Under the pieces are notes generated by a model. The model did no database searches. It was not told the DNA's origin and saw nothing but the letters and a program-made list of their open reading frames with translations. Below are positions 14,288 to 40,193 of a stretch of 64,000 bases of DNA, piece after piece (within the stretch, counting starts at the first letter, position 1; every line of letters starts with the position of its first letter). This stretch comes from Thermodesulfobacteriota bacterium (GTDB lineage: Bacteria > Desulfobacterota > UBA8473), in the NCBI GenBank assembly GCA_040757775.1, contig JBFLWQ010000001.1, positions 58,917-122,916 on the forward strand. The letters are read 5' to 3'. The translations under genes and the position numbers were made by a program.

Positions 14288-14881
14288 ATGGAAGTGATCA
14301 CAGCACCGCCAAGGGCATCTAGTAGGACGGCAGTTTTTCAGAAGATGTTTGATATATGCAAGTCTGTAAAAGCGGCAGGACCTTACCTGATTGTTGAGAT
14401 AGGAACATTCAGGGGAGATTTTGAGGGAGATGGAGGCAGCACTTATTTTTTTGCTAAGTGGCTTTCTGAAAATGGAGGTGGGAAACTTCACAGCGTAGAC
14501 AATAACCCACAAGCAATTGAGATTTCCAGAAACGTATGCAAAGAATTTGATCGGTACATTGAATGGCACAACATGAGGTCTGAGGATTTTTTGAGAACAT
14601 TTCATGAGCATATTGACATGGTTTACCTCGATAGTATCGGATGGCGTAAGGATGGTGTAGATCAGTTTACGTGCCAGTATCAGCATTTGAAGGACTGGAT
14701 GCTTGTAAAGGATCGGTTGAATGGAGCGTTAGGGATTGATGATACCGATGGACTAAAGTATGGAAAAGGAGCGCAGATTGTAGCGTATTTGAACGGGAAA
14801 GGAGTGCCATGGCAGACCGTATACTGTGTCGAGCATGGAAAATGGCCTTGTGGAGTGGTTGCGGAATGGAGGTATAGATGA
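14288..14881 (+). CDS. SAM-dependent O-methyltransferase-like (family 3/TylF-like)
   Basis: LIVEIGTFRGD ... MVYLDS resembles class I O-methyltransferase motifs; RBS gaggagg. Confidence 0.45.
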   Translation: MEVITAPPRASSRTAVFQKMFDICKSVKAAGPYLIVEIGTFRGDFEGDGGSTYFFAKWLSENGGGKLHSVDNNPQAIEISRNVCKEFDRYIEWHNMRSEDFLRTFHEHIDMVYLDSIGWRKDGVDQFTCQYQHLKDWMLVKDRLNGALGIDDTDGLKYGKGAQIVAYLNGKGVPWQTVYCVEHGKWPCGVVAEWRYR

Positions 14882-15078
14882 GGAGAATAAGGAGGATAGA
14901 GATGAAAAGCAAAGATTCAAAAAGAAAGGTCTCAAAAATGATTAAGCCAAAGTTTCGGAAGTATCAGGAGCTTACAGTTGAACAACGAACTGATCCTGAT
15001 TATCGGGTAAAGGAGTTAATGAAGCTCAGTGGAGATGAATCCTTCATTGGATGTACCAAGTGCCATCATTGCCGATAG
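14878..15078 (+). CDS. small basic hypothetical protein
   Basis: 66 aa, Lys/Arg-rich, C-terminal CTKCHHC. Confidence 0.25.
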   Translation: MRRIRRIEMKSKDSKRKVSKMIKPKFRKYQELTVEQRTDPDYRVKELMKLSGDESFIGCTKCHHCR

Positions 15079-15098
15079 AGAAAAGGAAGATGAACTAA

Positions 15099-17668: not shown

Positions 17669-18280
17669 ATGGCAAGAAAACGTAAAAAAAGGAAGAAGTA
17701 CAAAAGTTTTGTAAGGCTGAAAAAGTTGAAGTGTTTTTCTGAGGTTGACGTTCGTTTGCGTTGTGGAGCATCGCCAGAAAAGGTAGCCAGTTTTATCCAG
17801 CAGGAAATGAATGAATACGAAGACGTTAAATGGGTGTCGCTTGTCAGGCAACTGTACAAGTACAAGAAATCGATACCTGTAACCCAGGTTCTTAGCCCAA
17901 CGTATATTGATAGAGCGGTAAAACAGATAGAGATGTACATAGATATTGCCAATGATGAAGCAAAGTTGATTCAGTACCAGAAAATAAGATTAGCGTACTA
18001 CGGACAAAGAGAAGAAGTCATGAACGTACCCATTCACGAACAAAGTCGGAATATCGAATTGCTTGCGAATCTGTTGAAACAGCATCGGGATACGCTAATC
18101 GAGCTAGGAATCGTCAAGAGACAGCCAATTGAAATCGAAGAGAGGGTTGCTGGAAGGCTTGAACTTGAGCACAAGCATAAGCTATCGCCCCAAGAGACTC
18201 AAAGAGTGACATCAGAGGCACGAAAACTTCTGAAGTTATTAAAGGGTGGTAAGGATGAACGTGAGAGAAATACCGCCTAG
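17669..18280 (+). CDS. putative terminase small subunit
   Basis: 203 aa, basic N-terminus (MARKRKKRKKYK). Sits immediately upstream of and overlapping the large terminase; assigned on position only. Confidence 0.3.
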   Translation: MARKRKKRKKYKSFVRLKKLKCFSEVDVRLRCGASPEKVASFIQQEMNEYEDVKWVSLVRQLYKYKKSIPVTQVLSPTYIDRAVKQIEMYIDIANDEAKLIQYQKIRLAYYGQREEVMNVPIHEQSRNIELLANLLKQHRDTLIELGIVKRQPIEIEERVAGRLELEHKHKLSPQETQRVTSEARKLLKLLKGGKDERERNTA

Positions 18281-21088: not shown

Positions 21089-21122
21089 CCAAAGGACTTG
21101 TTGTCCTTTGGCTTTTCTGTTT
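21089..21122 (+). terminator. rho-independent terminator-like hairpin
   Basis: CCAAAGGAC-ttgtt-GTCCTTTGG (perfect 9-bp stem) followed by CTTTTCTGTTT. The track's TTG start for the portal (21108) lies inside this hairpin. Confidence 0.45.
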
Positions 21123-21137
21123 GAAAGGTACTCAGGC

Positions 21138-24100: not shown

Positions 24101-24752
24101 CCGGCCTGACCTTTACCAGATATGTAAAAGAAGAGGGACGACTGTTCAGGAATTGCGGGCATCCAACCATAAAGTAGTGAGCGTTGAACCCGACGGCGTG
24201 GATGCCGAAACGTACGACTTAACTGTAGATAACTATCATACGTTTGCAATAGGGTGTGGTATCTTTGTTCATAATAGCACCCTGACCGTACAGGATGTAC
24301 AATTCGCAAGGACTGTCCGTAGGTATCAGAAGATATTAACGAATCAGATAAGATCGATATACAATCTAGGGCTAATCTTGCAATCATTGGATCTTGCGAA
24401 GTCTCCGTATTATGTTTTCTTTCCACCTATAAATACTGTTGATGAGCTTGCTAGGTGGCAAACCGAAAAGGTAAAGGCTGAGATAGCAAAGATTTACGGG
24501 ATTGATATTAACTGCGTGTCTGAGGAATTTATTCTGTCCTATTATCTTGGACTGACTGACAATGAGATTAAGGATGTTTCAGGACAGACGAAACCGGTAC
24601 GGCAGGGCAAGGAGCAGCAGGTAGTAGAAACGATCACGACTTCCAACATCGAACCGCATGAGCTACTAGAGCTTGGAAATCTACTGGAAGCTCTGAGAGA
24701 CCTTGTTGAAATTGAACTGGAGAAGAAGGAACAAGAACGATGGGAGCATTAG
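21138..24752 (+). CDS. portal protein interrupted by two HNH-type inteins
   Basis: First ATG after the hairpin. Removing the two inteins leaves an extein of about 500 aa, typical for a portal, in the position after the terminase. Confidence 0.55.
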   Translation: MWLIDRITDLLTKAKYDPSGVDGPGTTRTGNEQNGWYYNLIKLEETRKARYKDYDTMDDEFPEISCVTGDTIVHCLDGDFTIKELTENKKDEMFLVYSCDGNRIVFDEAYAPRLSGRKVKVIRVRYRSNNRWTHELRVTGDHKFMMRDGSMKMAGKLRSGDSLMPFNAQYVNDRRVIKDLDGRKVYASHLVFEQYANRAVDLGKVIHHIDGNRRNDNPLNLHELSLEEHCRKHSMGNQHTLGMIWNDDTERVEKHRKRMLGNKHKKGKANSIETRMKMRKAHAERRLLGLKRNREYGKPWNKIQITPEDLVNAVERTNDYREASELLGISVPVFFRRVKDFGLRGAVDYNHVVVGIEDGGFEDVYDLTTRRTHKFAANHLIISNSSIDIYSDNATQSVDGTHESFWIESEDQKVKDVLTRINEETGLQDSIWSIGRNLVKYGDDFEEIVLNSSMFVVDIKGLPCEQMYRNEDEYGRLLEDGAFTQRDVSTNKELAEFKSWQIVHFRNVVKRGTKYGRSLLYPARKVFKQLQMMEDGMVIARLTRSNMRYKWKIDVGNMSANEARTFLRDVKMELRKKRVIDPATGKFKLTDNPLKDEEDFFVAVRDGSPADVDAIQGSATLGTIGDVEYFQNKLFSMLKVPKAYLGLERDVNAKCLAGDTPICLANGKDMPIRELVKLYSNGQRFYVYSCRRDGEIVIAEAHSPRITRRNAEMVKVTLDSGVSFRCTPDHPIMLRSGSFCQAKDIKNGTSIMPLYRKISEKPENSISGYELHRNPRTGQWRYTHRLVGRHLPRPIGEKRWVMHHVDFDKRNNSPDNLVLMTWDDHVKLHMAFVALLHTEEVKKRSREGVLKSAKFKKRLLSMNSSLWKRAKSSKTLRRLYAEGVMNVKGVLNPRYRKDVTVESIANAAREAKCSSAKEIQEKTGINYSLLRRRLDKLGLSYQEFADKVLEAGYRKTGWHRPDLSLEKIGEAIASFATVKEAAEKLGVNRPDLYQICKRRGTTVQELRASNHKVVSVEPDGVDAETYDLTVDNYHTFAIGCGIFVHNSTLTVQDVQFARTVRRYQKILTNQIRSIYNLGLILQSLDLAKSPYYVFFPPINTVDELARWQTEKVKAEIAKIYGIDINCVSEEFILSYYLGLTDNEIKDVSGQTKPVRQGKEQQVVETITTSNIEPHELLELGNLLEALRDLVEIELEKKEQERWEH
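21333..22289 (+). mobile_element. intein 1 (319 aa) with HNH homing-endonuclease domain
   Basis: Begins ...PEIS|CVTGDTIVHCLDG (block A); block B TGDHKF; HNH core HHIDGNRRNDNPLNLHEL...EEHCRKH; ends VYDLT...THKFAANHLIISN|S (blocks F/G, Ser+1). Confidence 0.5.
23100..24275 (+). mobile_element. intein 2 (392 aa) with HNH homing-endonuclease domain
   Basis: Begins ...NAK|CLAGDTPICLANG; HNH core HHVDFDKRNNSPDNLVLMTWDDHVKLH; ends TYDLTVDNYHTFAIGCGIFVHN|S (canonical HN + Ser+1). Confidence 0.6.
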
Positions 24753-27153: not shown

Positions 27154-28446
27154 ATGGAATGGCTAATTGAGACTTTGCCCGCTCGCCTCGAGATCGTTGA
27201 AGAGGCGACTGAGGCAAACGGTGGAAGGATGAAGGTTCGTGGCAAGTTCCAGGAAGCCGACGTGATAAATGGCAATGGTAGGGTTTATCCACGAAAGATA
27301 TTGAAAAGGGAAGTGGAAAGGTTGAAGCAGGACGTAGCTGAGCGGAGAGCGTTTGGAGAAGGAGACCACCCAAAAGATGGGAGGTCCACGATTTCTGGAA
27401 CGGTAAGTATCCTGACAGATATTGACATGCCTGACAATGAGGTATTCGGAGAGGCTATAATCCTGAATACCGCAAAGGGCAAAGACCTTCAGGAGATAAT
27501 TCGAGCCGGTGGTCGAGTTGGTGTGTCTAGCAGGGGCAGTGGAACAACAAAGAGAGGTAGATGGAATGGAGAAATGGCCGATGAGGTGGGGGAAGACTTT
27601 AGACTGAAAACGTTTGATTTTGTGATAGGCGCAAGCGTCAAAGGTGCTGAGGTGGGTTCATACACAGAACAGCAGCTTGATGTAATAAACATTCTCTCTG
27701 ATAGCCAGCGTGAGTTGGGAGAGGAGCAAAAAGGGGAAAAGGAGGAGGTTATGAAACTAGGAGAATTGAAGGAAAAGTATCCAGAGCTGGTGAAGCAACT
27801 GGATGAGGAGGTCACTGCTAGAGTGACTGATGAAATCACCAAGAAGGTAACCGAGGAAGTCACGAAAAGACTGTCCGATGACTTTGATAAGAAAGTCACC
27901 GAGGCAATTGATCAGCAAAGACAGGAGATTGTGAAACAGGTACGAGTGGAAATAGAGGGGTCGCCTGAGTTCAAAGCTGGTAATGACGTGCTTCGCAAGA
28001 TAATCGAATCGGTGAAACCACTACTCGGAGAAAACAAAGCAGATGATACCGATGATGAGAATAAGAAGATTATCGAGGGCTTGAAGGCATCCATTGAGGA
28101 GCAGGAAAAGAAGATTGAGAAGTTAGATAACCAGGTTAAGTCGCTGACTGGCCAGCTCTCTGAGGAAAAGTCTAAGGTTGAGGTAAAGGCATACATCGAG
28201 GAGAAGACCAAGGGCGAGGTTTTACGAAATAGCCTGATGGAGCGACTTGGTGACTGCAAGACAAAGGAAGAGGTTGATGAGCGGTTGCCCAAGGAAAAGG
28301 AAGCTATCAAGAAGGTAATCGATGAGTCCAAGCGTCCCCCAGGACATGGTAAAGTGCTGGATGAAGATAAGGAAGAGAAAGGGCTTACGGAAAACCAGAA
28401 AAGGCAACGTAGGGCTGCCGGTATCAAGGAGAAGTCCGACAAGTAG
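27154..28446 (+). CDS. prohead protease-like domain fused to a coiled-coil scaffolding domain
   Basis: N-terminal ~130 aa resemble the HK97-type (S78/U35) prohead protease (VRGKFQEADVINGNGRVYP; GEGDHPKDG; VGVSSRGSG). The C-terminal ~300 aa are E/K-rich heptad coiled coil. Lies upstream of the capsid gene. Confidence 0.45.
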   Translation: MEWLIETLPARLEIVEEATEANGGRMKVRGKFQEADVINGNGRVYPRKILKREVERLKQDVAERRAFGEGDHPKDGRSTISGTVSILTDIDMPDNEVFGEAIILNTAKGKDLQEIIRAGGRVGVSSRGSGTTKRGRWNGEMADEVGEDFRLKTFDFVIGASVKGAEVGSYTEQQLDVINILSDSQRELGEEQKGEKEEVMKLGELKEKYPELVKQLDEEVTARVTDEITKKVTEEVTKRLSDDFDKKVTEAIDQQRQEIVKQVRVEIEGSPEFKAGNDVLRKIIESVKPLLGENKADDTDDENKKIIEGLKASIEEQEKKIEKLDNQVKSLTGQLSEEKSKVEVKAYIEEKTKGEVLRNSLMERLGDCKTKEEVDERLPKEKEAIKKVIDESKRPPGHGKVLDEDKEEKGLTENQKRQRRAAGIKEKSDK

Positions 28447-28488
28447 TAACGTTTGAACGAGAAGAATATAAATAAGGAGGTTCAAATC

Positions 28489-29592
28489 ATGAAAGAGAGG
28501 AAACGATTATCACTGCCAGGTGTTGCACCTGCGTGGTTGAATGAGGATGAGGAAAGAAGGGAAAGATGGGCGTATCTGACAGAAGATATAAAGGATGATC
28601 TGCTAAGACGACAGGTCGAGACGATGTTGGATAACGAAGCATGGTACATGGATTATCTTGAAGAGACATCGCAGACCTCTAACGTAGGTACGTTTACTAC
28701 GTTTGCGTTCCCGCTCGTCAGAAGGATTTATCCAAAGCTGATCGCAACAGAGCTGGTTTCGGTTCAACCCATGACCCAGCCTACAGGCAAAATCTTCTAC
28801 CTGGATTTCAAGTACAATACCGGAGGTCAGAGAATCGACACGAATCCAGATAAGACCTATGCCAATGCAACCGAGGGCGGTGCAGTAAAGGAGATTAACT
28901 TTGATATCACCTCTGTGACTGTTGAGGCAGGAGAAAAGAAGCTCAAGGCAAAATGGACTATCGAGGCTCAGCAAGACTTGATGGCGTACCATGGCCTTGA
29001 TGCTGAAACTGAGTTAATGGGCGTCTGTGGAGATGAAATTACAAGAGAGATTGACAGAGACATCATAGACGATGTTGTTGCTCAGGCTTCTGCTGGTAAC
29101 GTCAACTGGTCAAAGACGATTCCGACAACTGCGCCATGGAACGTATTGGATCCAAAGGTCTACAAGGAAACCTTGTACGATGCGATCATCGATGCGAACA
29201 ACATGATTTTCAAGAAGAGGTATAGGAATGCTTCCTGGATTGTGGCCGACCCCGATACCTGTACCAGATTTGAGAAGCTCGAGAAATTCAAGTTGTTCGA
29301 AGGGGCTGATGACGCCACAATGAATATGGGAGTGATCAGATTCGGTACCCTTGCTAACAAGTATCGAGTCTATAAAGATCCGTGGTTCGCTGCCGACAAG
29401 ATACTGTTAGGTTACAAGGGGCCTACGTGGTTGGAGACAGGGTACGTCTATGCGCCGTACATTCCGTTGTACGTGACGCCTTTGATAATCGACCCTAATG
29501 ATTTCATACCAAGACGAGGGATGATGAGTCGGTTTGCCAAGAAGGTAGTTAGTGGCGACTTCTTCGCAACGGTAACGCTGACCGGGTCATAA
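28489..29592 (+). CDS. major capsid protein (putative)
   Basis: ATG 28489 with RBS aaggagg (the track's TTG at 28453 rejected). About 367 aa, following the scaffold/protease. Confidence 0.5.
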   Translation: MKERKRLSLPGVAPAWLNEDEERRERWAYLTEDIKDDLLRRQVETMLDNEAWYMDYLEETSQTSNVGTFTTFAFPLVRRIYPKLIATELVSVQPMTQPTGKIFYLDFKYNTGGQRIDTNPDKTYANATEGGAVKEINFDITSVTVEAGEKKLKAKWTIEAQQDLMAYHGLDAETELMGVCGDEITREIDRDIIDDVVAQASAGNVNWSKTIPTTAPWNVLDPKVYKETLYDAIIDANNMIFKKRYRNASWIVADPDTCTRFEKLEKFKLFEGADDATMNMGVIRFGTLANKYRVYKDPWFAADKILLGYKGPTWLETGYVYAPYIPLYVTPLIIDPNDFIPRRGMMSRFAKKVVSGDFFATVTLTGS

Positions 29593-29593: not shown

Positions 29594-30631
29594 ATGCTGA
29601 TGTGGAATTGGACTCCTGTACCTCAAGTCTTCTATGACGAGGTACAGGAGCCGTTCGCCGTGCTGCCCGGATTTTGCATCGACCACCAACTGGTACGAAA
29701 TGCAGAAAGCGAATATCTCCGACCTGCCCCCGTTCTAGCCAAGTTTCTTGCAAGTCGGAAGACTGCCAGTGTGTGTCTTGTAAGAGGGTATGCACTCGGC
29801 GACCTGATAATGCTAACACCCGTCATTGAACAGTTGAAGGAAGACTATCCTGGAGTCAAGATTTCGCTGGTAGTACAGGATAGGTACAAGGAACTGTTTC
29901 GGTATTATCGTAGCGTTGAGGACGTACTGGACTACAAAAGGGTCGGATCAAGGACGTTTGACTATGGGGTAATGCTGGATGGTGTTTTGGAGGTTGACCA
30001 TAGGAAAAGCTGTAAGAATAGGTCTCATAGAAGTGACATGTATGCAAGGTTTCTTGGTATGACGCTCATGAAGCACGTATTTCGACTTCCGATTTCTGAC
30101 CTTGACCGAAAGTGGGCTTTTAGGTTTCTTGCTGAGGCGGGAGTTGGCAAGGATGAACGGATCGTTGCTATACAAATCAAAGGGTCTACACCTGTTAAGA
30201 CGCTGCCGAAAGAAAAGGTAGTAAGGATATGTAAGGCGATTGTCGCTCTTGGTGCAAAGGTACTACTCATCGACCATGATAGAAACACTGGCTGGGAAGG
30301 AACTGGAATAATCAATGCCTGTGGGAAAACGAATGTACATCGGCTAGTAGCATTGCTTGAAAGAAGCAATCTCGCTGTTTGTATGGATAGTGGAGTGCTG
30401 CACCTGACTCACTGTACTGGGACCCCCACCGTAGCTTTGCTCGGAGCGACAAGGCCTCAAGATCGAACGGTATACCATCCTGATTGTGTAGCTGTTGAGC
30501 TAAATAAGGAAATAGGATGCGAGTCATGTTTTGAGGCGATGAGTGCATGTGGAGGTAGGGCAAATTGCATGGTTGCTGCAAATGAGAAAACAATTATACA
30601 GGCAATCGAAAGGAGAATTGCTAATGATTGA
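29594..30631 (+). CDS. glycosyltransferase family 9 (ADP-heptose heptosyltransferase-like)
   Basis: N-terminal GYALGDLIMLTPVIEQLKEDYPGVKISLVV; C-terminal NLAVCMDSGVLHLTHCTGTPTVALLGAT; terminal CxxC...C cluster. Confidence 0.65.
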   Translation: MLMWNWTPVPQVFYDEVQEPFAVLPGFCIDHQLVRNAESEYLRPAPVLAKFLASRKTASVCLVRGYALGDLIMLTPVIEQLKEDYPGVKISLVVQDRYKELFRYYRSVEDVLDYKRVGSRTFDYGVMLDGVLEVDHRKSCKNRSHRSDMYARFLGMTLMKHVFRLPISDLDRKWAFRFLAEAGVGKDERIVAIQIKGSTPVKTLPKEKVVRICKAIVALGAKVLLIDHDRNTGWEGTGIINACGKTNVHRLVALLERSNLAVCMDSGVLHLTHCTGTPTVALLGATRPQDRTVYHPDCVAVELNKEIGCESCFEAMSACGGRANCMVAANEKTIIQAIERRIAND

Positions 30632-31007
30632 AATGATGCAAGCTGTAGCGCCGGTTGTCAATTTTTCGCTCGTTATTGTCCTTGTAGCTTATATATGGAA
30701 GGCCAGGTCTCAAGGAATTGATGCCATGCAGCAAAAGATCGATATGGCAGCGACCCGCACCGAACTTGATAAGGTTGAGACCAGGCTTGGCGATTATGCC
30801 AGAAAGCAGGACTTGGATATGGTAATCAAGACGCTGGAAACGCTGGATGAAAAATGGGAACGAAGAGAGGAACGAATTATGACACGTCTTGATGATGGCA
30901 ACAAGGAGTTCAGGAAGATTGGTGAATGCATTGCTAGTCTTGACACACTGACAGACCTGTTGAAGAGGCAGGTAAACAGTATAACTGGAGCAAGAACTTG
31001 TGGTTAG
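30624..31007 (+). CDS. membrane-anchored coiled-coil protein
   Basis: ATG 30624 with RBS aaggaga (the track's 30543 start is inside the GT gene). One N-terminal TM helix followed by coiled coil. Confidence 0.3.
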   Translation: MIEMMQAVAPVVNFSLVIVLVAYIWKARSQGIDAMQQKIDMAATRTELDKVETRLGDYARKQDLDMVIKTLETLDEKWERREERIMTRLDDGNKEFRKIGECIASLDTLTDLLKRQVNSITGARTCG

Positions 31008-31041
31008 GTGGGTTAAATAACGAAAGAAAAAAGGGGGAAGT

Positions 31042-31239
31042 ATGCAGGTACAGACCGTAAAGATTAAGAACCATAGCAGAATTGACCAGATCGTTTACGA
31101 CAGGGCTTTTGATCCGACCATTGTCAGGCCTGGCGATACCGTTGAAGGAGAGTTTTTTGTCGAGAAGACGAAGGGACTGACCATAACAAAGGTCAAGAGT
31201 TCCGATGTGAAGATGAGGCAGAAAAAAGAAGAGGAATAG
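31042..31239 (+). CDS. hypothetical small protein
   Basis: RBS aaggggga + ATG; 65 aa. Confidence 0.3.
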   Translation: MQVQTVKIKNHSRIDQIVYDRAFDPTIVRPGDTVEGEFFVEKTKGLTITKVKSSDVKMRQKKEEE

Positions 31240-31242
31240 AAT

Positions 31243-31860
31243 ATGGCATACTGTACTGAGGATATTGTGTCTCTATGGGTAAGCCTGACCGGAAAGTCCA
31301 CTACTGTCAAAAACGTCCTGATGGAGGCAGCAACTGAGTATGTTGATAATGCTACAGGAGACAAGTTTGTAAAAGAGGACGGGGCAGCAAAGCTGTTTGA
31401 CGGAATGGGCAGTGAGGTTCTGAAAGTCTGGCCCAAGCTCAGGTCGATTACCAAACTTGAGGTTATGGATGATGCTGGTGATTGGGAAGAGGTGTCAAGT
31501 GATGAGTACAGGATTGCTGACAACTGGATTGAGCGTACTGATGGGACATTCCCGAATGGAATTGACAATGTGAGGGTTACTGGTAATTGGGGCTGGACCT
31601 CTACGCCGAACATAATAAAGCTGGTGACCGGCAGAATTGCTGCGGTAATGCTGGAGCAGAAAGGACAGATAACGAGTGAGACGATTGGAGCGTATTCTGT
31701 GACCACCGGAAAGGATGGAGCGATCACTGTTGAGCAGGTATTGAATATGTACAGACTTCACGCTCCTGTTGATATGGGAACGATACCGTTTAGGAGAGAG
31801 ATTGAACTCGCTGATGAGACTATTGACGATTTTTACAGGGACATATTGAGAGGACTGTGA
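31243..31860 (+). CDS. hypothetical virion protein (possible head–tail connector)
   Basis: 205 aa in the late structural module; no motif recognised. Confidence 0.3.
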   Translation: MAYCTEDIVSLWVSLTGKSTTVKNVLMEAATEYVDNATGDKFVKEDGAAKLFDGMGSEVLKVWPKLRSITKLEVMDDAGDWEEVSSDEYRIADNWIERTDGTFPNGIDNVRVTGNWGWTSTPNIIKLVTGRIAAVMLEQKGQITSETIGAYSVTTGKDGAITVEQVLNMYRLHAPVDMGTIPFRREIELADETIDDFYRDILRGL

Positions 31861-32855
31861 TGATTGGGATTGACCAAATAGACTACGATTTGAGGACAAT
31901 GGAGCCTATCATCAGGCGTGCACAGCCGGTGAAAAAACCGGAGGGGTCTAAAGGAGTTAGTCCTATTGATGATGGACATATGTTCTACCCGCGTGTGGCA
32001 TGGGTTCAGGACTGGTCGACGACAGGTGGTGCTGAGCTAAGTAATCTCGAAGTTATCCGAGTCGGTAGACTGCTTGGGTTTAGTATTCAGCAGATAACAC
32101 CTAAGAATTTTGATCTGAAATGGCTCAGGAGTGCCGACCTGATAGTAATCAATAATTTTTTCCAGTTCAAGGATGACCAGGCGAAGAAAGTACTCGAGCT
32201 GATATTTGAAAAGAATGTCCCGTATGTCAAGTACGAACATGACCACAGGGAGATAGAAAGGCTTGGGCTATCCAGACGACTCTTTGGAAAATCGAGGCTG
32301 AACGTGTTTATTTCCCCACTACAGGAGAAAGGTCATAGGAAAGTTATCGAGGTGGATCCCTGTATCGTGCTGCCTCTCGCATACGATACGCACAGGTTTT
32401 GCAATGGTGGAGAGGACGTAAGGAAAAAGAACACTGTTGTGTCAACGACCGGCAAGCTATGGAATAGTAAAGGACTGATGAATATCTACGCATTTGTAAT
32501 GAATAGGCCTGATTTGATCTTCGATGTGTACTCGATAAAGAACGATATTATTTCCCAGTTGCTTGGGAACAAGAAGAATGTGAGGCTGCATGAGCCAATT
32601 CCGATTGAGCAAATGCCCAATGTTTACAGACAGGCTGAATATGTAATTCACCTACCAACGTATCCAGAAGCATGTGGGAGGAGTGTTGTTGAAGGTGTCC
32701 TATGTGGATGTAAGCCAGTAGTTAATGAGCTATGTGGCGTTGCTTCTTACGATTGGTGGGGAGATAGAAAGAAACTCGTTGATGCTGTCAAAAAGGCTCC
32801 GTATAAGTTTTGGAAAGCTATTGACAGCATAGAAAGGTGGAAGTCATGCACATGA
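31857..32855 (+). CDS. GT-B glycosyltransferase (GT4-like)
   Basis: EACGRSVVEGVLCGCKPVV is an E-x7-E retaining-GT motif; ATGA overlap with the upstream gene. Confidence 0.5.
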   Translation: MMIGIDQIDYDLRTMEPIIRRAQPVKKPEGSKGVSPIDDGHMFYPRVAWVQDWSTTGGAELSNLEVIRVGRLLGFSIQQITPKNFDLKWLRSADLIVINNFFQFKDDQAKKVLELIFEKNVPYVKYEHDHREIERLGLSRRLFGKSRLNVFISPLQEKGHRKVIEVDPCIVLPLAYDTHRFCNGGEDVRKKNTVVSTTGKLWNSKGLMNIYAFVMNRPDLIFDVYSIKNDIISQLLGNKKNVRLHEPIPIEQMPNVYRQAEYVIHLPTYPEACGRSVVEGVLCGCKPVVNELCGVASYDWWGDRKKLVDAVKKAPYKFWKAIDSIERWKSCT

Positions 32856-33460
32856 AAGAGTATTGGATCAGTAGATTCAAGTCACAAGGTCCGACTATGG
32901 TTGAGGGGACTCCAAGCGAGTATGAGACCAGAACGAAACAGAAGGTTGCCCTGCTTAGTGGGCTGATCAAGATGCACTTCACAAAGAAGTCGTTGCTGCT
33001 TGACTATGGATGTTGTAACGGAAGACTTGCGCATCCGTTGTCGGAGCTGGTGCAAAAGGTGTACGGAGTGGATATCGTGCCGGATGCGATAGCGATGGCG
33101 AAAGCTGTGGACAATAAGAAAGCAGATTTTTTTCTACTTGAGGAAGGTCCCCTACCCTTCCGAACAGGGTTCTTCAGTGGTGCGTATGCGATCACTACGC
33201 TTGCACATGTCCCACATGATGAAATAGGACAGGTAGCTCAGGAAATAAAGAGGGTTGTGCGGAAAAACGGGATTATGATTCTCTACGAGAATGTCTCGTA
33301 CTGGATTGAGAAACCAAAGAGCCATATGTTTTTCAGATCTGTTAAAAAGTATGCCGAGCTTTTTGGACCCTGTGAGGTAATCGAAGGGGTTGATAAACCA
33401 CGACCGGATGACCTCATGAAAGAAGAACACGTAGTAATGATATTCAGGAACTTGAAGTGA
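32846..33460 (+). CDS. class I SAM-dependent methyltransferase
   Basis: Motif I LLLDYGCCNGRLA. Start ATG 32846 or 32852, overlapping the upstream stop. Confidence 0.6.
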   Translation: MHMKEYWISRFKSQGPTMVEGTPSEYETRTKQKVALLSGLIKMHFTKKSLLLDYGCCNGRLAHPLSELVQKVYGVDIVPDAIAMAKAVDNKKADFFLLEEGPLPFRTGFFSGAYAITTLAHVPHDEIGQVAQEIKRVVRKNGIMILYENVSYWIEKPKSHMFFRSVKKYAELFGPCEVIEGVDKPRPDDLMKEEHVVMIFRNLK

Positions 33461-34389
33461 GAACAGATCAGGTAAGGAAAATAGCGGTTCACTTCCAGAA
33501 TGGCATAGGGAACTGGATCATGTTCACTCCATCAGTGCAGGCTCTGAAATCACTGTACCCGAATGCTACCATGACAGTGGTCCTTGACTCTGGTTGGCAG
33601 GATAATAGAAAGAATGCTATCAGAGAGCTTGTTGGATCCCTGGATGTCGTTGATAAGGTAATAGAGTACCCGAAACAATCAGTTGACGGATACGATCTGT
33701 ACTTTGCGAATAATTGGGGAGAGCCATGTGATACACACAGGCTTTTTGTGGAGAAAGGATTCAAACAAAGGCAGCCTGAATGGAGAACAAGACTGATTCA
33801 TGAAACTGAGTTTTACATGGAAGATGTGTACGCTCTTGGCTATCGAGGCCCAATGCCGAAACAGCATGTGTCTGTTGCTGCTATGCCTGTAGTGAAAAAG
33901 AATGGGATGAGAATAGGTCTTTGTAATGGTTACTTTAAGGATAGTGGTAGATGGAACTGGAAGAGGAAGGCATGGGACAAATTTCCCGAGCTTGCAAGTG
34001 TACTGAAGTTGTATTTTGATGCCGAAATAGTCCTGTTCGGCAATGCGGATGAGCTTGAAGGAGTGGAAGGAGATATTGATTATAGGGGTAAGCTGAAAAT
34101 AACCGAGACGGCAAAGGCAATATCTCAGTGCGACCTGATGGTAAGTAGTGATAGTGGGCTTATGCACGTAGCTGATGCGTTGGAGGTACCGCTTGTAGCC
34201 ATTTTTGGGGCCACGCTGTGTTCAAAGAATGGGCCGATACAGACCAAGAATGTTGTAGTGAGGTCTCCTGTTGCATGTGCTCCATGTCAGTTTACGTTTG
34301 TATTCAGGGCGTGCAGTGATTTCGTGTGTATGAGAGCTATTCAGGTAGGGGATGTTATGGCTGCTGTCCGCCAGTTGATTAAGGATTAG
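33457..34389 (+). CDS. glycosyltransferase family 9 (heptosyltransferase-like), second copy
   Basis: KIAVHFQNGIGNWIMFTPSVQALKSLYPNATMTVVLD; SSDSGLMHVADALEVPLVAIFGAT; terminal CAPC; GTGA overlap with the upstream gene. Confidence 0.65.
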   Translation: MRTDQVRKIAVHFQNGIGNWIMFTPSVQALKSLYPNATMTVVLDSGWQDNRKNAIRELVGSLDVVDKVIEYPKQSVDGYDLYFANNWGEPCDTHRLFVEKGFKQRQPEWRTRLIHETEFYMEDVYALGYRGPMPKQHVSVAAMPVVKKNGMRIGLCNGYFKDSGRWNWKRKAWDKFPELASVLKLYFDAEIVLFGNADELEGVEGDIDYRGKLKITETAKAISQCDLMVSSDSGLMHVADALEVPLVAIFGATLCSKNGPIQTKNVVVRSPVACAPCQFTFVFRACSDFVCMRAIQVGDVMAAVRQLIKD

Positions 34390-34393: not shown

Positions 34394-34723
34394 ATGAGTT
34401 TTGGATCTCTGTTGAACATGAAAGGGACAATAACACGGTATACAGTGACGTATCCTGAAGACAAAATGGGAGCTGCAACCAAGACCCCAACCCCAACAGT
34501 AATTGCAACTGATGTTCCATGTACGATACAGCCTAAGAGTGGCAGGCTGAGGGCTATAGAGTATGGTCAGACGCTCCAAGCAATGTATATCGGATTCTTC
34601 CTTATTGGAACAGACCTTCAGGAGGCTGATGAGGTAGAGGTTAATAGTGTAGTGTACAAGGTCAAGTTTGTGAGTGATGCGGCTGGTAGAAGTCACCATA
34701 TTGAAGCAGACCTATCGAGGTAG
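34394..34723 (+). CDS. head–tail adaptor-like small protein
   Basis: 109 aa; RBS aaggatta; position between the glycosyltransferase block and the gp10-like gene. Confidence 0.3.
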   Translation: MSFGSLLNMKGTITRYTVTYPEDKMGAATKTPTPTVIATDVPCTIQPKSGRLRAIEYGQTLQAMYIGFFLIGTDLQEADEVEVNSVVYKVKFVSDAAGRSHHIEADLSR

Positions 34724-34725
34724 AT

Positions 34726-35121
34726 ATGGCATTTGATAAGACGAAGACTATGGTTGACATCGAACGGGAACTTGAGAAGCGGTGCATTCTCGGTGCGAAG
34801 AAACTCTCCGAAATGCTTGAGTACGAACAGAAGGTGCCTGCTAGGGTCAAAACCGGAAGAATGAAACATAGCGTTGCAGGGAATTACACCGGAAGTGGCA
34901 TTACAAGGACGAAGGTATTTCAGGGTGAGGTTGTCACCGTTGTACCTGAACCGAAGGAAGGGAAGTATGTATTTACGGCTATAAGCGATACGCAGGTGTA
35001 CTATGCTAAGTTTGTGGAGTTTGGTACGAGAAGAAGCAGGCCGTACCCGTTTATGAGGCCCGGGTATGAAAAGGTTAGACAACAGGCTAATAGAATTTGG
35101 ACCGAGGCATTACGAGGATGA
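34726..35121 (+). CDS. HK97 gp10-family head–tail joining protein
   Basis: AKFVEFGTRRSRPYPFMRPGYEKV is the characteristic gp10-family C-terminal motif. Confidence 0.55.
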   Translation: MAFDKTKTMVDIERELEKRCILGAKKLSEMLEYEQKVPARVKTGRMKHSVAGNYTGSGITRTKVFQGEVVTVVPEPKEGKYVFTAISDTQVYYAKFVEFGTRRSRPYPFMRPGYEKVRQQANRIWTEALRG

Positions 35122-35552
35122 AGGAGATTAAGGATTTTCTATATAAGTTGATTAGAAATGATGCAACGTTTAAGAGTTTGACCGGCGCGGACAGCAAGGA
35201 TCCACGAATATACTTTTTCTATCCACCTGATGACGTTGTGGTATCGGATGAAAAGCCATGCTATGTGACGTATTACCTCGGAGCAGGAGCCGGGCTGCCG
35301 GATCCACACGTTAACAGTGTTCAAAGGCCGGATGAAGTATACACGTTTGATATATGGGGTAAGGATATTGATGTTATTGAGGATGTTTTTGAGCGGATTG
35401 ATGCGTTGTTCTTTGAAACGAATCGATTCGAAACGAGTGGATACAGGATATTGCGGGCCTCGAGAGAGAGACAAAACGATTTGCCAGATCCTGACGATGA
35501 GTTCCGACGTAAGATAGTGGAATATCGGATCGGGCATATTATGAAAAAGTAA
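35118..35552 (+). CDS. tail completion/terminator-like protein
   Basis: ATGA overlap start; 144 aa; assigned on position only. Confidence 0.3.
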   Translation: MKEIKDFLYKLIRNDATFKSLTGADSKDPRIYFFYPPDDVVVSDEKPCYVTYYLGAGAGLPDPHVNSVQRPDEVYTFDIWGKDIDVIEDVFERIDALFFETNRFETSGYRILRASRERQNDLPDPDDEFRRKIVEYRIGHIMKK

Positions 35553-35579: not shown

Positions 35580-36077
35580 ATGGGAGCTGAGAACATTGAA
35601 TTGGGGTATTGTGAGGCAAAGTATAACAATATAGACCTCGGTCTGACAAAGGGTGGGTGTGTAGTAACCATAACTCCGAATCTGTACGAGATCACCGTAG
35701 ACAAGTATGGGAAGACTCCGATAGATGATAGGGACCTAGGCTATAGTGTTAAAGCTACGGTACCGTTGGTAGAAAAGACGCTATCGAACCTGAAGGTTGC
35801 ATTCCCGTTCGGAGATCTGTCAGGTGGGAAGCTAAAGTTGGGTGGTAAGCTTGGAGGAAGCATAGCAAAGTACGAACTGAATCTCCATCCTGCAGAGATG
35901 GATGCTGGAGATAAGTCTAGGGATGTCACCATCTACAAGGCTGCATCGGTCAATGAAGTTGCTATCGGACATACTAACGAAGGTGAGAGAATAATTCAGG
36001 TCACGTTCAAAGGATACATTGACACGACACGACCGAAGGGTGACCAGCTTGTAAGGTTTGGATTGGATGGCAGTTAG
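35580..36077 (+). CDS. major tail (tube) protein
   Basis: 165 aa immediately before the chaperone G/GT pair and the tape-measure gene; RBS aaggagg. Confidence 0.5.
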   Translation: MGAENIELGYCEAKYNNIDLGLTKGGCVVTITPNLYEITVDKYGKTPIDDRDLGYSVKATVPLVEKTLSNLKVAFPFGDLSGGKLKLGGKLGGSIAKYELNLHPAEMDAGDKSRDVTIYKAASVNEVAIGHTNEGERIIQVTFKGYIDTTRPKGDQLVRFGLDGS

Positions 36078-36523: not shown

Positions 36524-36798
36524 CACGGTTCTATGGATGGACACACTCTCAGATAATGTCATTAACTCCAGGGCAGTATCGGTTTTACCTGTCTGGTATG
36601 GACAGACTTAATGCTAGTGAACGCCTTGAGGAAATTGTTGTTCATTCAATTCCATATCTTAGTTCTGGAAGTAGAGCTGGTATTGTTCAAAGGTATCGAA
36701 ATGAACTTATGAACGATCTATGCGAACCATACGAACCATGTCTCGATGAAACTGCTTTTTTAAATATAAAAAGACGACTGCCTAGAGGACGTGCATAA
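36458..36798 (+). CDS. tail assembly chaperone -1 frameshift extension (GT product, 36113..36466 joined to 36466..36798)
   Basis: Slippery A_AAA_AAA at 36460-36466 (within the A9 run 36458-36466). The -1 frame is open from the slip site through the 36556 ORF to 36798, where ATGA couples to the tape-measure start. Confidence 0.5.
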
Positions 36799-39700
36799 TG
36801 TTTGACGCTGGTAGTTTAGTTTCTAAGCTCACGCTTGATGCGACTGAATATTTCAAAAAGCTTGGTGAAGCCTTGTCCAAGTTTGAAGGACTTGGTACGT
36901 CTATCGGCAAAGAAATGGATAAAATCCAAAAGGATGGACAGATTGCAGCCGATAAGATGGCTAGCTCCTGGAATAAGGCACTGAAGGACATTGAAAAGAA
37001 TTCCGATATGTTCAAGAGCATCGGAATGAAGATAAGTGCTATCGCTGCGGCTGGTACTGCTGGACTAACAGCGACTGTTATGGCGTCGTCGAAATTCGAG
37101 GCGTCCCTTGCTAATGTGTCTACTCTGGTTAATACGAGTGAAGTCAGCATGGCAAAGCTAAAGCAAGGTATCATGGATTTGCCTCCTGAACTTGGGCGGG
37201 CAACCATGTTGAGTGAAGGCTTGTATCAGGCGTTGTCTGCTGGAGTAAAGCCTGCTGAGGCGATAGGTTTTGTCACTGCTGCGGCTAAGGCGGCAAAGGC
37301 AGGTTTGACTGATGCGTTTACCGCTGTCGATGCTGGAACAACGATCCTGAACGCGTTTGGAATGCAGACTTCCGACGCTGGCATAGCTTTTGATCAGATG
37401 TTCAAGACTGTTGAGCTTGGCAAGGTCACATTTGAAGGTTTGGCAGTAACGGTTGGAAATGTAGCACCTACGTTTGCCACTGCAAAGCTGTCCACCGAAG
37501 AGATGTTCGCCGCCATAGCGACCTTGACTGCTGGCGGTATTGACGCTGCACGTGCTACTACGTCATTGAACAGTGTAGTTTTAAATATAATCAGGCCACA
37601 GGAAAATGCTATTGAAGTTGCACGACAGTACGGGATTGATTTGAGCCTGGCTGGACTACAGGCGAAGGGGTTCAGTGGATTTTTGAAAGAGCTTCAGGAT
37701 AAAGTTGGAGGTAATACTGAGGCACTCGTTAAGATTATACCCAACATCGAAGCCTTACGAGCTATCCTGCCGTTGGTTGGAACACAGGCTAATATGTTTG
37801 GAGAAGCCCTGGACGCTATCGGAGCGAAATCAAAAGGTGCTATTGACAAAGCTTTCTTAAAACAGATGGACACAACTAAGGAGTCATTTGCTGCTCTTGG
37901 AGTTAGTGTTGAAAAGTTTGCGATTGCTATTGGAGACAAGCTTGCACCTGTCATAAGGGTTGTAACAGAGCGTGTAACGGATATGGTTAAATGGTTCAAT
38001 GACTTGAACGATGGATGGAAAACTGCCATCGGTCTCTCGGTAGCTCTTGGTACTGGACTGGCTGCTATTACTGGTCCTGCACTTCTGCTGATAGGATACC
38101 TTCCACGAATAGCGGAAGGTATTGCGATGATAGGTACTTTTATTGCTGCGCACCCGATCGGGCTGGCGATCACTGGGATTGCTGCAGCGATAGGTGCGCT
38201 TACTATTGCGTTTTTGTCATATAAAGCAGCCCTAGCCGATGTGACCCCATTTCAGGAATATTCACATAATCTTGCCGTTGTAGATAAAGAGCTAGAAAGA
38301 TTGAGGGGACGAGTTGAGACCCTAGAAAAACAACCATGGATTTTCGGACCAACGAAGGGCATGATTCAGGAGACACTGGATCGGATTAAAGAACTGGAAG
38401 AGAAAAGGCAACAGATCATACGTGACTTTGCCAAGATAGGAGACAAAGAAGAGGAGGATAGGAAGAAGGCAAAAGAGGAAAAAGAGAAGCTGGAAAAGGA
38501 GAAAAAGAGAATAGAGGAGCAAGAGGAAAGGAATAGACGAAAGCAATTAAAGTCGCAAGCAGATGATGAGGCAAGAAAGGAACGAGTGAAGCTCAACCGT
38601 GAACTAGAGTTGTCTCTTATGAACGAGAAGGAAAAAGCCATTGCCATAATGAATGAAAAGGTTGAGGCGTTCAGGAAGGCTGGTCTGGATGAGACTAAGA
38701 TTCAGGGATATATTGATCAGGAAAAGCTTGAAATTGAGCAAAAGTATACAGGGTTGACACAAAAAGAGTACGATAAGCTCGTGGAACACTGGAGGCAGGC
38801 TAATAAGTACAAGGCAGAACTGGCTGGGAAGGCCCTTGAAGAAGAACTCAGAGAGACTGATAATGCTATTAACCAGCAGGAAGCCATGTATCGTGATTTG
38901 TTCTACAAGTCAGGTCAATATGCTAAGGAATATACATACTTTAGAGAGCTTCAAATCGATATTGAAACCGATGACTTGATAGAGTCCCTGACAAAGAATG
39001 TTCGAAGCATAGAAGAAGCTAATGAAATCATCTTGCTTATAGAACAGCAAGCGGTAGAAAAGAAGAGACAACTCCATCTAGAAACCAATAAGGCAATGCT
39101 TCAGTATTCAAATGATTTTGTTATGGGGTGGAGTATAGGACTGGATGAAATGCTAGCAAAGCAATACACCTGGGGACAGGCGGGCTATGATGTGTTCAAA
39201 GCCTTTACGGATGGTGCAAAGACTATGTTCTCCAGTATGTTTATGGACTTTTTCACGAGCGATCTCAAGACGTTTGGGGATTACTGGGAGTCGTTTTGGA
39301 ACTCTATGCAAAGAAAGTTCTCGGAAATTTTGTCACAGATGCTGGTGGAATGGATGATGACGCAAGGAAGGATGCAATATGCCACAGGCGGCGGATATAC
39401 ACAGACTGGAGCAGGAGGACAGGTCGTACAGACCAGCTATGGGATGTTGTCAGGGGCAGCATTGGCTGGGATTCCTGCAGGTTCCGAGGTTGCGTTCGTG
39501 CCTCTATCCGAATTGTCTCAGGCAGAAATCACGGCGGCCGTGCAGCAGGGGGCGAACATTACCACCACATCAGAGGGTGTCCAGGGGCTTGCGGTGACAA
39601 AAGTTGCGGAGGCTGGGTTCTGGCAATACGCCGGGACGGCGGGTATTAGCTATATGGGGTCTAATCTTGTTGCTTCTCTTTTGGGAACGGAAAAGGGAAG

Positions 39701-40193
39701 TGCTGAAGACCTGGCAACAAGAGCTTTGTCAGGAGCAGCAACAGGGGCTGCTTGGGGCACATGGGTAATGCCTGGTGTAGGTACAGGCATAGGTGCAATC
39801 ATAGGAGGGATTACAGGACTGCTCGGTGGTTTGTTCCATGAGGGTGGCATCATCAAGGCTCATGGAGGGCTGAAGATAGGAAGTGCTATCTCCGATATGA
39901 TGTCATCTGTTTTTAAGCCAAGAGAAAAGCTAGTCCTTACTGAAGTTGGCGAAGGGATCCTACCTGTTCCAGTCATGGATAGACTTGGTGACATAGGTTT
40001 TGAGAGCCTACGGAGTGGGAACTTTGAGATTAAATCCGAACGTAGCTCTGTATCAGGAACTGGAAACCATTTCTATATTGATAAGTTGGTAGCGATTGAA
40101 GGTGACTACCACGTGTTTGATGATAGGTTTATTGAAAATCTGACCAGAAAGGTAAGAACTGAATTACAAAATCTTGCAGAACTGAGGCACTAA
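36798..40193 (+). CDS. tail tape-measure protein
   Basis: 1131 aa; N-terminal TP901-type region, long EK-rich coiled coil, Gly-rich hydrophobic C-terminal segments. Confidence 0.8.
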   Translation: MFDAGSLVSKLTLDATEYFKKLGEALSKFEGLGTSIGKEMDKIQKDGQIAADKMASSWNKALKDIEKNSDMFKSIGMKISAIAAAGTAGLTATVMASSKFEASLANVSTLVNTSEVSMAKLKQGIMDLPPELGRATMLSEGLYQALSAGVKPAEAIGFVTAAAKAAKAGLTDAFTAVDAGTTILNAFGMQTSDAGIAFDQMFKTVELGKVTFEGLAVTVGNVAPTFATAKLSTEEMFAAIATLTAGGIDAARATTSLNSVVLNIIRPQENAIEVARQYGIDLSLAGLQAKGFSGFLKELQDKVGGNTEALVKIIPNIEALRAILPLVGTQANMFGEALDAIGAKSKGAIDKAFLKQMDTTKESFAALGVSVEKFAIAIGDKLAPVIRVVTERVTDMVKWFNDLNDGWKTAIGLSVALGTGLAAITGPALLLIGYLPRIAEGIAMIGTFIAAHPIGLAITGIAAAIGALTIAFLSYKAALADVTPFQEYSHNLAVVDKELERLRGRVETLEKQPWIFGPTKGMIQETLDRIKELEEKRQQIIRDFAKIGDKEEEDRKKAKEEKEKLEKEKKRIEEQEERNRRKQLKSQADDEARKERVKLNRELELSLMNEKEKAIAIMNEKVEAFRKAGLDETKIQGYIDQEKLEIEQKYTGLTQKEYDKLVEHWRQANKYKAELAGKALEEELRETDNAINQQEAMYRDLFYKSGQYAKEYTYFRELQIDIETDDLIESLTKNVRSIEEANEIILLIEQQAVEKKRQLHLETNKAMLQYSNDFVMGWSIGLDEMLAKQYTWGQAGYDVFKAFTDGAKTMFSSMFMDFFTSDLKTFGDYWESFWNSMQRKFSEILSQMLVEWMMTQGRMQYATGGGYTQTGAGGQVVQTSYGMLSGAALAGIPAGSEVAFVPLSELSQAEITAAVQQGANITTTSEGVQGLAVTKVAEAGFWQYAGTAGISYMGSNLVASLLGTEKGSAEDLATRALSGAATGAAWGTWVMPGVGTGIGAIIGGITGLLGGLFHEGGIIKAHGGLKIGSAISDMMSSVFKPREKLVLTEVGEGILPVPVMDRLGDIGFESLRSGNFEIKSERSSVSGTGNHFYIDKLVAIEGDYHVFDDRFIENLTRKVRTELQNLAELRH

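Follow-up and report, generated by a model that had tools for sequence, protein, structure and literature searches.

A candidate virion glycosylation cassette of GT9 and GT4-like enzymes within the late operon of an uncultured phage group

We have analysed 64,000 nucleotides (hereafter the window) of a Thermodesulfobacteriota metagenome-assembled genome (MAG; GenBank assembly GCA_040757775.1, contig JBFLWQ010000001.1, positions 58,917 to 122,916 of the forward strand), in which glycosyltransferase genes lie among the head and tail genes of a phage-like element. Judging from sequence, this cassette is probably a phage-encoded virion glycosylation system. The reading is favoured because the enzymes are embedded in the structural operon, their position is conserved across capsid families, the cassettes are modular in architecture, and the putative acceptors, the major capsid protein (MCP) and the tail tube protein, end in a serine that matches those of mycobacteriophage virion proteins and correlates with the cassette. 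A preliminary description, drawn by a model from the letters of the window, had preferred virion glycosylation to a lysogenic-conversion moron, and this preference is supported by the conserved position in phages with two unrelated capsid families and by Ser ends like those of Che8 and Corndog. The genes concerned are listed below; related loci carry numbers with the prefix L.

12110-16535, + strand: second glyco-cluster, upstream of ParB-like/terminase genes (Pfam matches)
27154-28446, + strand: prohead protease/scaffold, in the late operon upstream of the capsid gene
28453-29592, + strand: MCP, T4 gp23-like (PHROG 138 at 1.8e-65; PDB profile match to T4 gp23 at 6e-32)
29594-30631, + strand: GT9a, GT9-family GT-B glycosyltransferase (PF01075)
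30624-31007, + strand: small protein with hydrophobic N-terminal helix and coiled coil (weak sub-threshold matches only)
31042-31239, + strand: open reading frame (ORF) of 65 amino acids (aa), with weak homologues in L015 and L144/L145
31243-31860, + strand: head-tail adaptor, 205 aa (PHROG 442, 1.9e-20)
31857-32855, + strand: GT4-like GT-B glycosyltransferase (PHROG 2170 'glycosyltransferase'; AlphaFold2 (AF2) model and Foldseek)
32837-33460, + strand: class I S-adenosylmethionine (SAM) methyltransferase (PF08241 at 1.6e-14); the start codon may be 32846 or 32852
33457-34389, + strand: GT9b, signature GT9 enzyme of the phage clade, 310 aa (PF01075; AF2 model and Foldseek)
34394-35552, + strand: connector genes (second adaptor, neck/tail-completion protein, tail terminator; PHROGs 1059, 5 and 78)
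35580-36077, + strand: putative major tail (tube) protein (PHROG 2175 at 2.8e-29), between the tail terminator and the chaperones/tape measure
36798-40193, + strand: tape measure protein, preceded by chaperones after the tube gene

All ORFs of the cassette were found, co-directional on the + strand, where the preliminary description had placed them, and PHROG and profile matches agree with its account of the flanking protease/scaffold, capsid, connector, tube, chaperone and tape measure genes. They belong to a late operon of phage genes that is continuous on the + strand from 21 to 45 kb of the window. The reported start/stop overlaps were read directly in the sequence (GTGA at 31857 and 33457), a 1-nt spacer separates the capsid stop codon from the ATG of GT9a, and the GC content of the cassette (0.445-0.48) is like that of its flanks. 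Between 27 and 36.5 kb no terminator-like site was found on the + strand, and there is a single, weak promoter-like site, which is below chance expectation; the cassette enzymes show no sign of a separate transcription unit.

Some details of the first account need revision. Of its 'two small ORFs', one is the 65-aa ORF at 31042-31239; L144/L145, which hold weak homologues of it, are without glycosyltransferases, and it is probably a small head-module protein that is not specific to the cassette. The other, 31243-31860, is the head-tail adaptor, so that the enzymes are interleaved with structural genes and do not form one unbroken block. The 'membrane coiled-coil protein' has the hydrophobic helix, likely a transmembrane one, and the coiled coil ascribed to it, but its true start is probably 30624 (the ORF had been listed as 30543-31007). 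No homologue of this protein was found in the related loci, and it is not a conserved member of the cassette. The methyltransferase is SAM-dependent as proposed, judging by its PF08241 match, and has homologues in ~15 GT9b loci.

The limits first given for the system, 29594-34389, do enclose these enzymes, but further glycan genes are located at 12110-16535. This second cluster encodes a PIG-L-family deacetylase, a WbqC-like protein, two methyltransferases (one of them of the Methyltransf_24 type, 14288-14881) and a 478-aa Glycos_transf_1 (GT1-family) glycosyltransferase. It is counted as part of the same system because homologues of the window PIG-L and WbqC proteins are found inside the capsid-to-GT9b cassettes of L049 and L047. 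No flippase, polymerase or priming phosphoglycosyltransferase was identified among the annotated cassette genes, some cassette genes not being assignable.

A word-indexed search of 5.8 billion proteins recovered 26 relatives of GT9b, all metagenomic, and five only of GT9a. By profile scan, the GT9b family (homologues 25-45% identical) is present in 57 IMG/VR viral contigs and in several metagenome contigs. Every GT9b homologue whose contig was read is the last member of a glycan-gene array and directly precedes the genes for adaptor, connector, tube and tape measure, and wherever the contig extends far enough the array is preceded by terminase, portal and capsid genes. In these other loci an adaptor of ~200 aa (Pfam HCP/Phage_connect_1), which may or may not be homologous to the one at 31243-31860, directly follows GT9b. 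A GTDB scan of 185,579 reference genomes yielded one further phage-like locus only, L223 in a Pirellulales MAG, the remaining matches being cellular GT9 proteins of no more than 32% identity. Neither megablast of window positions 27-37 kb nor tblastn of GT9b gave a match among 50,697 phage records; no cultured relative is known.

Interval counts are based on the 34 of the 57 IMG/VR contigs in which both MCP and GT9b could be placed. The cassette order is MCP, GT4-like gene, variable genes, GT9b. Of the 34 intervals between capsid gene and GT9b, 29 hold a GT4-like gene, which mostly comes immediately behind the capsid gene, and from gene content we regard the GT4-like and GT9b pair as the conserved cassette core. 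The interval spans from ~1 kb with two glycosyltransferases only (L031, L050) to ~15 kb of glycan genes (L013/L342, IMGVR_UViG_3300038678_000291; L048/L308, IMGVR_UViG_3300033149_006345), with up to ~10 glycosyltransferases per cassette. The variable genes encode GT2, GT17 and further GT1/GT4 enzymes, a GT2-methyltransferase fusion, DegT-type sugar aminotransferase, hexapeptide acetyltransferase, CmcI-like O-methyltransferases, sulfotransferases and UDP-glucose dehydrogenase. Sulfotransferases in L001 and L002, and the UDP-glucose dehydrogenase in L001, suggest sulfated or uronic-acid glycans.

The cassette is associated with two unrelated MCP families: the HK97 type (PF05065) in most loci, and the Gp23 type in the window, L007, L015, L143, L148 and L149. 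GT9a relatives accompany Gp23-type capsids only, mostly directly after the capsid gene (two ORFs lie between in L007). The closest relative of the window, L015 (MCP match 1e-156), has GT9a, GT4-like and GT9b genes consecutively, and L007 has GT9a and a methyltransferase, without GT9b.

The C-termini of the virion proteins deserve special attention. The window MCP ends in ...ATVTLTGS and the putative tube in ...VRFGLDGS, and only three of 60 ORFs in the window end in Ser, the third being a doubtful 90-aa reading frame. Tubes of related loci end in ...GGAAS, ...GGPNS, ...DPAS, ...HTAS or ...DGGS, the terminal Ser being invariant over proteins just 27-40% identical; in the terminator, adaptor and connector proteins of related loci a C-terminal Ser is not conserved. 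We scanned IMG/VR for tube homologues irrespective of their context, counting distinct sequences and taking as cassette-free those loci with at least 6 kb upstream and no GT9b, GT9a or GT4-like gene there. Tubes end in Ser in 11/11 cassette loci versus 0/34 cassette-free loci (Fisher p = 1e-10, a value that overstates the evidence because it stems from few independent events, about two clades). Cassette-free tubes end in, for example, ...GDSTA, ...GDPAAA or ...GGAPTP.

For Gp23-type MCPs, terminal Ser was found in all six that are linked to GT9a or GT9b and in 6/51 others (p = 2.5e-5), and the nearest Gp23-type relatives without a cassette end in ...ITNTP or ...TITP. All of the ~33 cassette-linked HK97-type MCPs end in Ser. 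In this clade, however, the residue is also found where no cassette is adjacent. The IMG/VR contigs L327, L334 and L345 (27-112 kb) have connector-sized ORFs and the tube directly after the capsid gene and no GT9b or GT4-like gene within 10 kb; their capsids end in ...DAATS or ...GPTS and their tubes in ...GFSSA, ...GFSSP or ...GYSSP, and glycosyltransferases could still be encoded elsewhere in these genomes. As a cassette-specific marker, the capsid terminal Ser holds for the Gp23 type and fails in the HK97-type clade. Among tubes and Gp23-type capsids the association of cassette and terminal Ser is strong; among HK97-type capsids it does not discriminate.

In L007 the MCP ends in ...TTSS and the tube, which belongs to another family, in ...IASF. 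This locus fits a division of labour among the enzymes, because GT9a without GT9b goes there with a Ser-ending MCP and a tube that does not end in Ser. A separate observation concerns L015, where a 96-aa ORF just before the likely tube (L015:14291-14581) ends in ...LVSS, the same as the end of the L015 capsid protein.

To our knowledge, phage virion glycosylation has been shown only in a few mycobacteriophages. Freeman et al., writing in Cell Host Microbe in 2023, reportedly encountered few signs of it among phages at large. The relevant passages of later papers state that in Che8, Corndog and Myrna the capsid and tail-tube subunits are glycosylated at their C-termini by the phages' own glycosyltransferases (PMC12619734, PMC11600133, PMC12363180); from such secondary summaries we infer that the residue modified in Che8 and Corndog would be the terminal Ser. 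The Che8 MCP ends in ...NKTGS and its tube in ...YSDGS, other Che8 head and tail proteins not ending in Ser; the ends TGS (capsid) and DGS (tube) are identical in the window. Those of Corndog are similar (VGS and GDS), its MCP ending in ...PLVGS and its gp49, which gene position marks as the likely tube, in ...IKGDS. Brevibacterium phage AGM1 served as a control: its MCP resembles that of Che8 (52% identity), no glycosyltransferase is annotated in its genome, and its MCP and tube end in ...TYTAV and ...VAGV.

By these comparisons the cassette would follow the same logic as mycobacteriophage virion glycosylation, with the same apparent acceptor signature, although the enzymes are unrelated, the hosts different and the cassettes much larger. 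The window, Corndog and Che8 all combine phage-encoded glycosyltransferases with O-methyltransferase(s), including a Methyltransf_24 enzyme in each (14288-14881 in the window, Che8 gp108, Corndog gp35). As in the window, the Corndog cassette, a methyltransferase followed by three glycosyltransferases, is placed in the head module near the capsid gene (methyltransferase gp35, glycosyltransferases gp36-38, protease gp39, MCP gp41); in Che8, gp108-110 are located at the right genome end, with the glycosyltransferases ~50 kb from the capsid gene. The preliminary description was right that the enzymes differ from those of actinophages: the mycobacteriophage ones are small GT-A proteins (GT25-like, GT2-like) with TylF-type methyltransferases, whereas the window encodes GT-B enzymes and a Methyltransf_11 protein. 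BLAST of the Corndog enzymes against the window proteins showed no similarity, and the Pfam families differ from those of Che8 gp110 and Corndog gp38 (GT25-like). Further differences from Che8 and Corndog are the gp23-like fold family of the window capsid, the diderm Thermodesulfobacteriota MAG as host instead of an actinobacterium, and related cassettes of up to ~15 kb with sulfotransferases and aminotransferases. A search of the literature brought up neither GT9/GT4 cassettes in phage head modules nor a C-terminal Ser signature outside actinophages.

In the chlorovirus PBCV-1, virus-encoded cytoplasmic machinery glycosylates the virus's own major capsid protein. That system, unlike the present one, belongs to a eukaryotic giant virus, produces N-linked atypical glycans by means of GT-A enzymes and has no homology to the window proteins; PBCV-1 capsid glycosylation is mentioned in bioRxiv 10.1101/2023.12.21.572611.

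As proposed in the preliminary description, both GT9a and GT9b belong to the GT9 family, with PF01075 scores of 50.5 and 67.4 bits, respectively (gathering cut-off 22), and they share only 24% identity. The AF2 model of GT9b (predicted local distance difference test, pLDDT, 90.5) has as its best Foldseek matches the GT9 structures 3TOV (7e-16), WaaF (2e-14), and WaaC and TibC (both ~1e-11), a search that cannot tell TibC apart from WaaC/WaaF. Neither protein passes an NCBIfam equivalog cut-off (heptosyltransferases I/II/III, TIGR02193/02195/02201; RfaC/F/Q; Aah/TibC).

The kinship with bacterial autotransporter heptosyltransferases (BAHT) suggested at first did not hold. The profile comparison of GT9 versus BAHT that the preliminary description had asked for was run and places both ORFs inside GT9 (PF01075) and outside the BAHT model TIGR04414, whose cut-off of 200 bits is far from reached by GT9a (15 bits, E 0.009) and which GT9b does not match at all. 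TibC and AAH were absent from the PDB sequence-search matches of the two proteins at E up to 1. The N-terminal beta-barrel (TibC residues 1-97; PMC4358343) is not found in GT9b (310 aa versus 406 aa), the model of which opens directly with a Rossmann strand and helix. What the window enzymes have in common with TibC and AAH is a GT9-like GT-B fold, a Cys4 motif in the C-lobe that may be comparable to a metal finger and, as proposed here, action on Ser of a protein substrate; the BAHT targets, however, are autotransporters, and those proposed here virion proteins. Assignment to either the BAHT or the lipopolysaccharide (LPS) subfamily was rejected, the hidden Markov models, PDB sequence searches and fold search fitting no characterised subfamily.

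In TibC, an iron finger in the C-lobe contacts the protein substrate (PMC4358343). GT9b has four cysteines, C274, C277, C286 and C291 (CxxC-x8-C-x4-C), invariant across the family and spaced unlike C339/342/358/370 of TibC, and GT9a also has a Cys4 motif near its C-terminus. The motif was rejected as a discriminating marker of protein glycosylation: 57 of 58 cellular GT9 relatives have it.

With WaaC, WaaF and WaaQ (CAZy GT9) the window proteins share PF01075 above cut-off, the fold and the D(S/T)GxMH donor motif; they differ in scoring far below the equivalog cut-offs, in their location in a phage head operon and, for GT9b, in Asn for Asp at the catalytic position. The cassette might serve to remodel the host envelope, with LPS core, O-antigen or capsule altered in lysogeny (serotype conversion, superinfection exclusion) or late, preventing re-adsorption to debris. 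GT9 is, after all, the LPS heptosyltransferase family, and heptosyltransferases I, II and III are the best NCBIfam matches, although sub-threshold (63 bits at best versus cut-offs of 135-185). A distant GT9a relative (23% identity) is found inside a cellular Wzx/Wzy polysaccharide cluster; DegT, acetyltransferase, WbqC and GT2 accessory genes are typical of O-antigen loci; the small cassette protein has a likely transmembrane helix; and the element is apparently an integrated prophage beside a tRNA-Arg gene. We nevertheless consider envelope remodelling unlikely. It would leave the Ser ends of tube and capsid unexplained, and it sits poorly with genes that lack a promoter or terminator of their own inside a late structural operon, with a capsid-to-adaptor position conserved across unrelated capsid lineages, with the failure at every LPS heptosyltransferase equivalog cut-off and with the near absence of the GT9b clade from the reference genomes outside phage-like contexts. 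Like GtrABC-type lysogenic conversion, the system has prophage-encoded glycosyltransferases, but no GtrA/GtrB/GtrC-type membrane families were found in the cassette, which is 20 kb from the tRNA junction.

At the active site the two GT9 proteins diverge. The catalytic base of TibC, Asp-110, was identified by superposition on WaaC (PMC4358343), where the equivalent is Asp13. GT9a retains a canonical Gly-Asp motif (ALGDLIM). In GT9b the N-terminal motif NGIGN aligns to HLGD of 3TOV, so that Asn19 occupies the position of the catalytic Asp, and GT9b has no equivalent of TibC Asp-110. Asn is found there in 58/60 distinct viral GT9b sequences; among cellular hits Asp is found in 70 and Asn in 10. 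The donor-side motif D(T/S)GxMH and Lys171 are conserved in the family alignment, the latter invariantly, and GT9b is probably active with a different base.

An exhaustive GT9b profile search gave 1274 clusters at E <=1e-30, of which ~60 are stand-alone proteins of ~310 aa; below these in the ranking are many multidomain proteins of 600-2500 aa. The nearest cellular Asn-variant GT9 sequences are domains of giant TPR-GT4-GT9 proteins (TPR, tetratricopeptide repeat; Shinella, Methylosinus, Pseudoroseomonas) or TPR-GT9-GT2 proteins (Pseudomonas). Four such fusions, of 1440-2021 aa, come from cultured strains:

L226:5900-10927: TPR-glycosyltransferase fusion (Shinella)
L241:6203-10876: TPR-glycosyltransferase fusion (Methylosinus)
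L232:4889-10954: TPR-glycosyltransferase fusion (Pseudoroseomonas)
L228:8174-12496: TPR-glycosyltransferase fusion (Pseudomonas)

A layout of TPR and glycosyltransferase domains is typical of protein-glycosylating enzymes (OGT, FlmG). We count the TPR-GT4-GT9 fusions in favour of virion glycosylation, because they have this layout and join the same two families, GT4 and GT9, as the phage core (an Asn-variant GT9 domain in L226 and L241); they are giant and multidomain, unlike the stand-alone phage enzymes of ~310 aa without TPR repeats.

Several points weigh against glycosylation of capsid and tube at their terminal Ser. GT9 enzymes usually act on LPS, and GT9b, without the canonical catalytic Asp, could be inactive or work otherwise. 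The cassette-linked tubes fall into about two clades of a neighbour-joining tree, and the terminal-Ser correlations carry no correction for phylogeny. There is an exception among Gp23-type capsids, the cassette-free MCP of L147, which ends in ...TLTS, and 13 distinct HK97-clade MCPs end in Ser with no GT9b or GT4-like gene in the examined flank. The tube at 35580-36077 is putative, named by its PHROG match and synteny alone (a PDB sequence search with it gave no match), and the glycosylated residue of Che8 and Corndog is taken from what other papers summarise of Freeman et al. 2023.

Such observations could also mean that the enzymes have other or mixed protein targets (other sites, decoration or fibre proteins, host proteins), that the terminal Ser is an unrelated lineage trait, and that GT9b is perhaps a non-catalytic binding or assembly factor. 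The Asn of GT9b, the HK97-type capsids that retain terminal Ser without an adjacent cassette and the few clades of cassette-linked tubes would all suit this explanation. It is made rather improbable by the conservation of the GT9b donor-binding motifs and Lys, by a terminal Ser that stays invariant while the tubes diverge, and by the occurrence of the same terminal Gly-Ser on the two proteins which, in the summaries cited above, are glycosylated in Che8 and Corndog.

The GT4-like protein (31857-32855) scores 22.0 bits with PF00534 (Glycos_transf_1), under the gathering cut-off of 26.4, and its family profile reaches only 5e-4 against PDB. Its AF2 model, built with 33 homologues (pLDDT 86), is that of a GT-B protein with retaining GT4 enzymes as best Foldseek matches: HepE (7.5e-12), then more weakly BshA, WaaG, MshA and PimA. 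The earlier designation as a retaining GT-B enzyme of GT4 type thus agrees with the fold, but not with the Pfam threshold. More than 148 homologues were found, nearly all unannotated and mostly without a Pfam domain; this glycosyltransferase family is essentially unannotated. NCBI annotates the window protein as a 291-aa 'hypothetical protein'.

T4 alpha-glucosyltransferase is among the weaker Foldseek matches of this model, and some phage GT-B enzymes act on DNA (bioRxiv 10.1101/2023.12.21.572611). The cassette could on these grounds be thought to place sugars on modified phage DNA bases, as T4 glucosyltransferases and 5-hydroxymethylcytosine-glycan pathways do. Such DNA hypermodification appears very improbable: the annotated ORFs of the window include no 5mYOX/TET, thymidylate-synthase-like hydroxymethylase or similar partner, the genes belong to the head and not to the replication module, and sulfotransferases, aminotransferases and up to ~10 glycosyltransferases per cassette misfit base modification, which has no link to the terminal-Ser pattern either.

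For virion glycosylation, the reading we prefer, we infer the following course. The soluble cytoplasmic GT-B enzymes GT9a, GT9b and GT4-like would be made late, on one transcript with the head and tail proteins. They would put a short glycan on the exposed ...Gly-Ser ends of MCP and tube and lengthen it, the C-terminal Ser of both subunits being O-glycosylated in the cytoplasm. The start and extension of the glycan would fall to GT9a, an additional enzyme linked to Gp23-type capsids, and to the GT4-like/GT9b pair. The SAM methyltransferase and the 12110-16535 cluster (deacetylase, WbqC-like protein, two methyltransferases, glycosyltransferase) may tailor the sugars. Heptose as the sugar is a family-level guess only. 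The benefit, by analogy with mycobacteriophages, might be shielding of the virion surface.

A more far-reaching version is possible but, taken as a whole, doubtful. In it, a large unrecognised group of environmental phages, with hosts that would include diderms such as Thermodesulfobacteriota and Planctomycetota, decorates its virions by means of the GT4-like and Asn-variant GT9 pair, which would recognise the free C-terminal Ser of capsid and tube; the alpha-carboxylate of the acceptor would make up for the missing Asp through substrate-assisted catalysis. The Ser would then have to be the last residue, because the acceptor's own alpha-carboxylate would act. If true, phage virion glycosylation would follow a general rule of 'C-terminal Ser + glycosyltransferase', reached convergently and shared with actinophages that have unrelated enzymes.

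In the window, and in no fewer than 57 viral contigs related to it, unrelated enzymes seem to do the same job in phages of very different hosts, and virion glycosylation may be far more widespread than in actinophages. The findings offer several handles: a terminal Ser on capsid and tube beside a GT4-like/GT9b pair, the more than 148 'hypothetical' glycosyltransferases, and a GT9 clade without the canonical catalytic base. If confirmed, the system bears on the surface chemistry of phages in sediments and waters and on evasion of recognition by hosts or grazers, as well as on the engineering of glyco-shielded therapeutic phages and on how protein-directed GT9 enzymes work and recognise their substrates.

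As to the element itself, window positions 1-8500 hold cellular genes (phosphofructokinase-response regulator fusion, UbiA, aminotransferase IV, an anthranilate/p-aminobenzoate synthase pair and a GGDEF protein). The host/phage junction is at a tRNA-Arg(CCT) gene (8635-8711), after which phage genes follow. Within the 64-kb window neither a direct repeat of the tRNA end, such as would mark an attachment site, nor a recognisable integrase was found. The GC skew reverses at ~63 kb, and the prophage probably extends to the right past 64 kb. The element is most likely an integrated prophage.

One more structural gene of the late operon was placed by PHROG/profile match:

21108-24752, + strand: portal

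This ORF is of 1214 aa, the portal-profile match being limited to ~aa 440-675. Two of its stretches resemble HNH endonucleases (~aa 166-266 and 768-1009) and could be inteins or else fused homing endonucleases. The probable large terminase (18246-20186, 646 aa) has no Pfam match at E up to 0.001 and matches ORFs in L007, L148 and L149 at 2e-86 to 5e-76; the one in L007 is located just 5' of a T4-type portal gene and has PF27249 (MJ0330_N) as its sole Pfam annotation. At 53021-56672, a MoxR-type AAA ATPase is split by an intein-like LAGLIDADG/Hom_end segment at aa 319-387; a VWA-domain protein and a DUF6744 protein follow, so that the phage carries a MoxR-VWA pair. Finally, the 524-aa product of 60062-61636 is possibly a DNA methyltransferase, having a DUF4942 domain and a sub-threshold MTS methyltransferase match (20.9 bits versus a cut-off of 23); a DNA polymerase III beta-clamp homologue (57967-59043) is encoded nearby.

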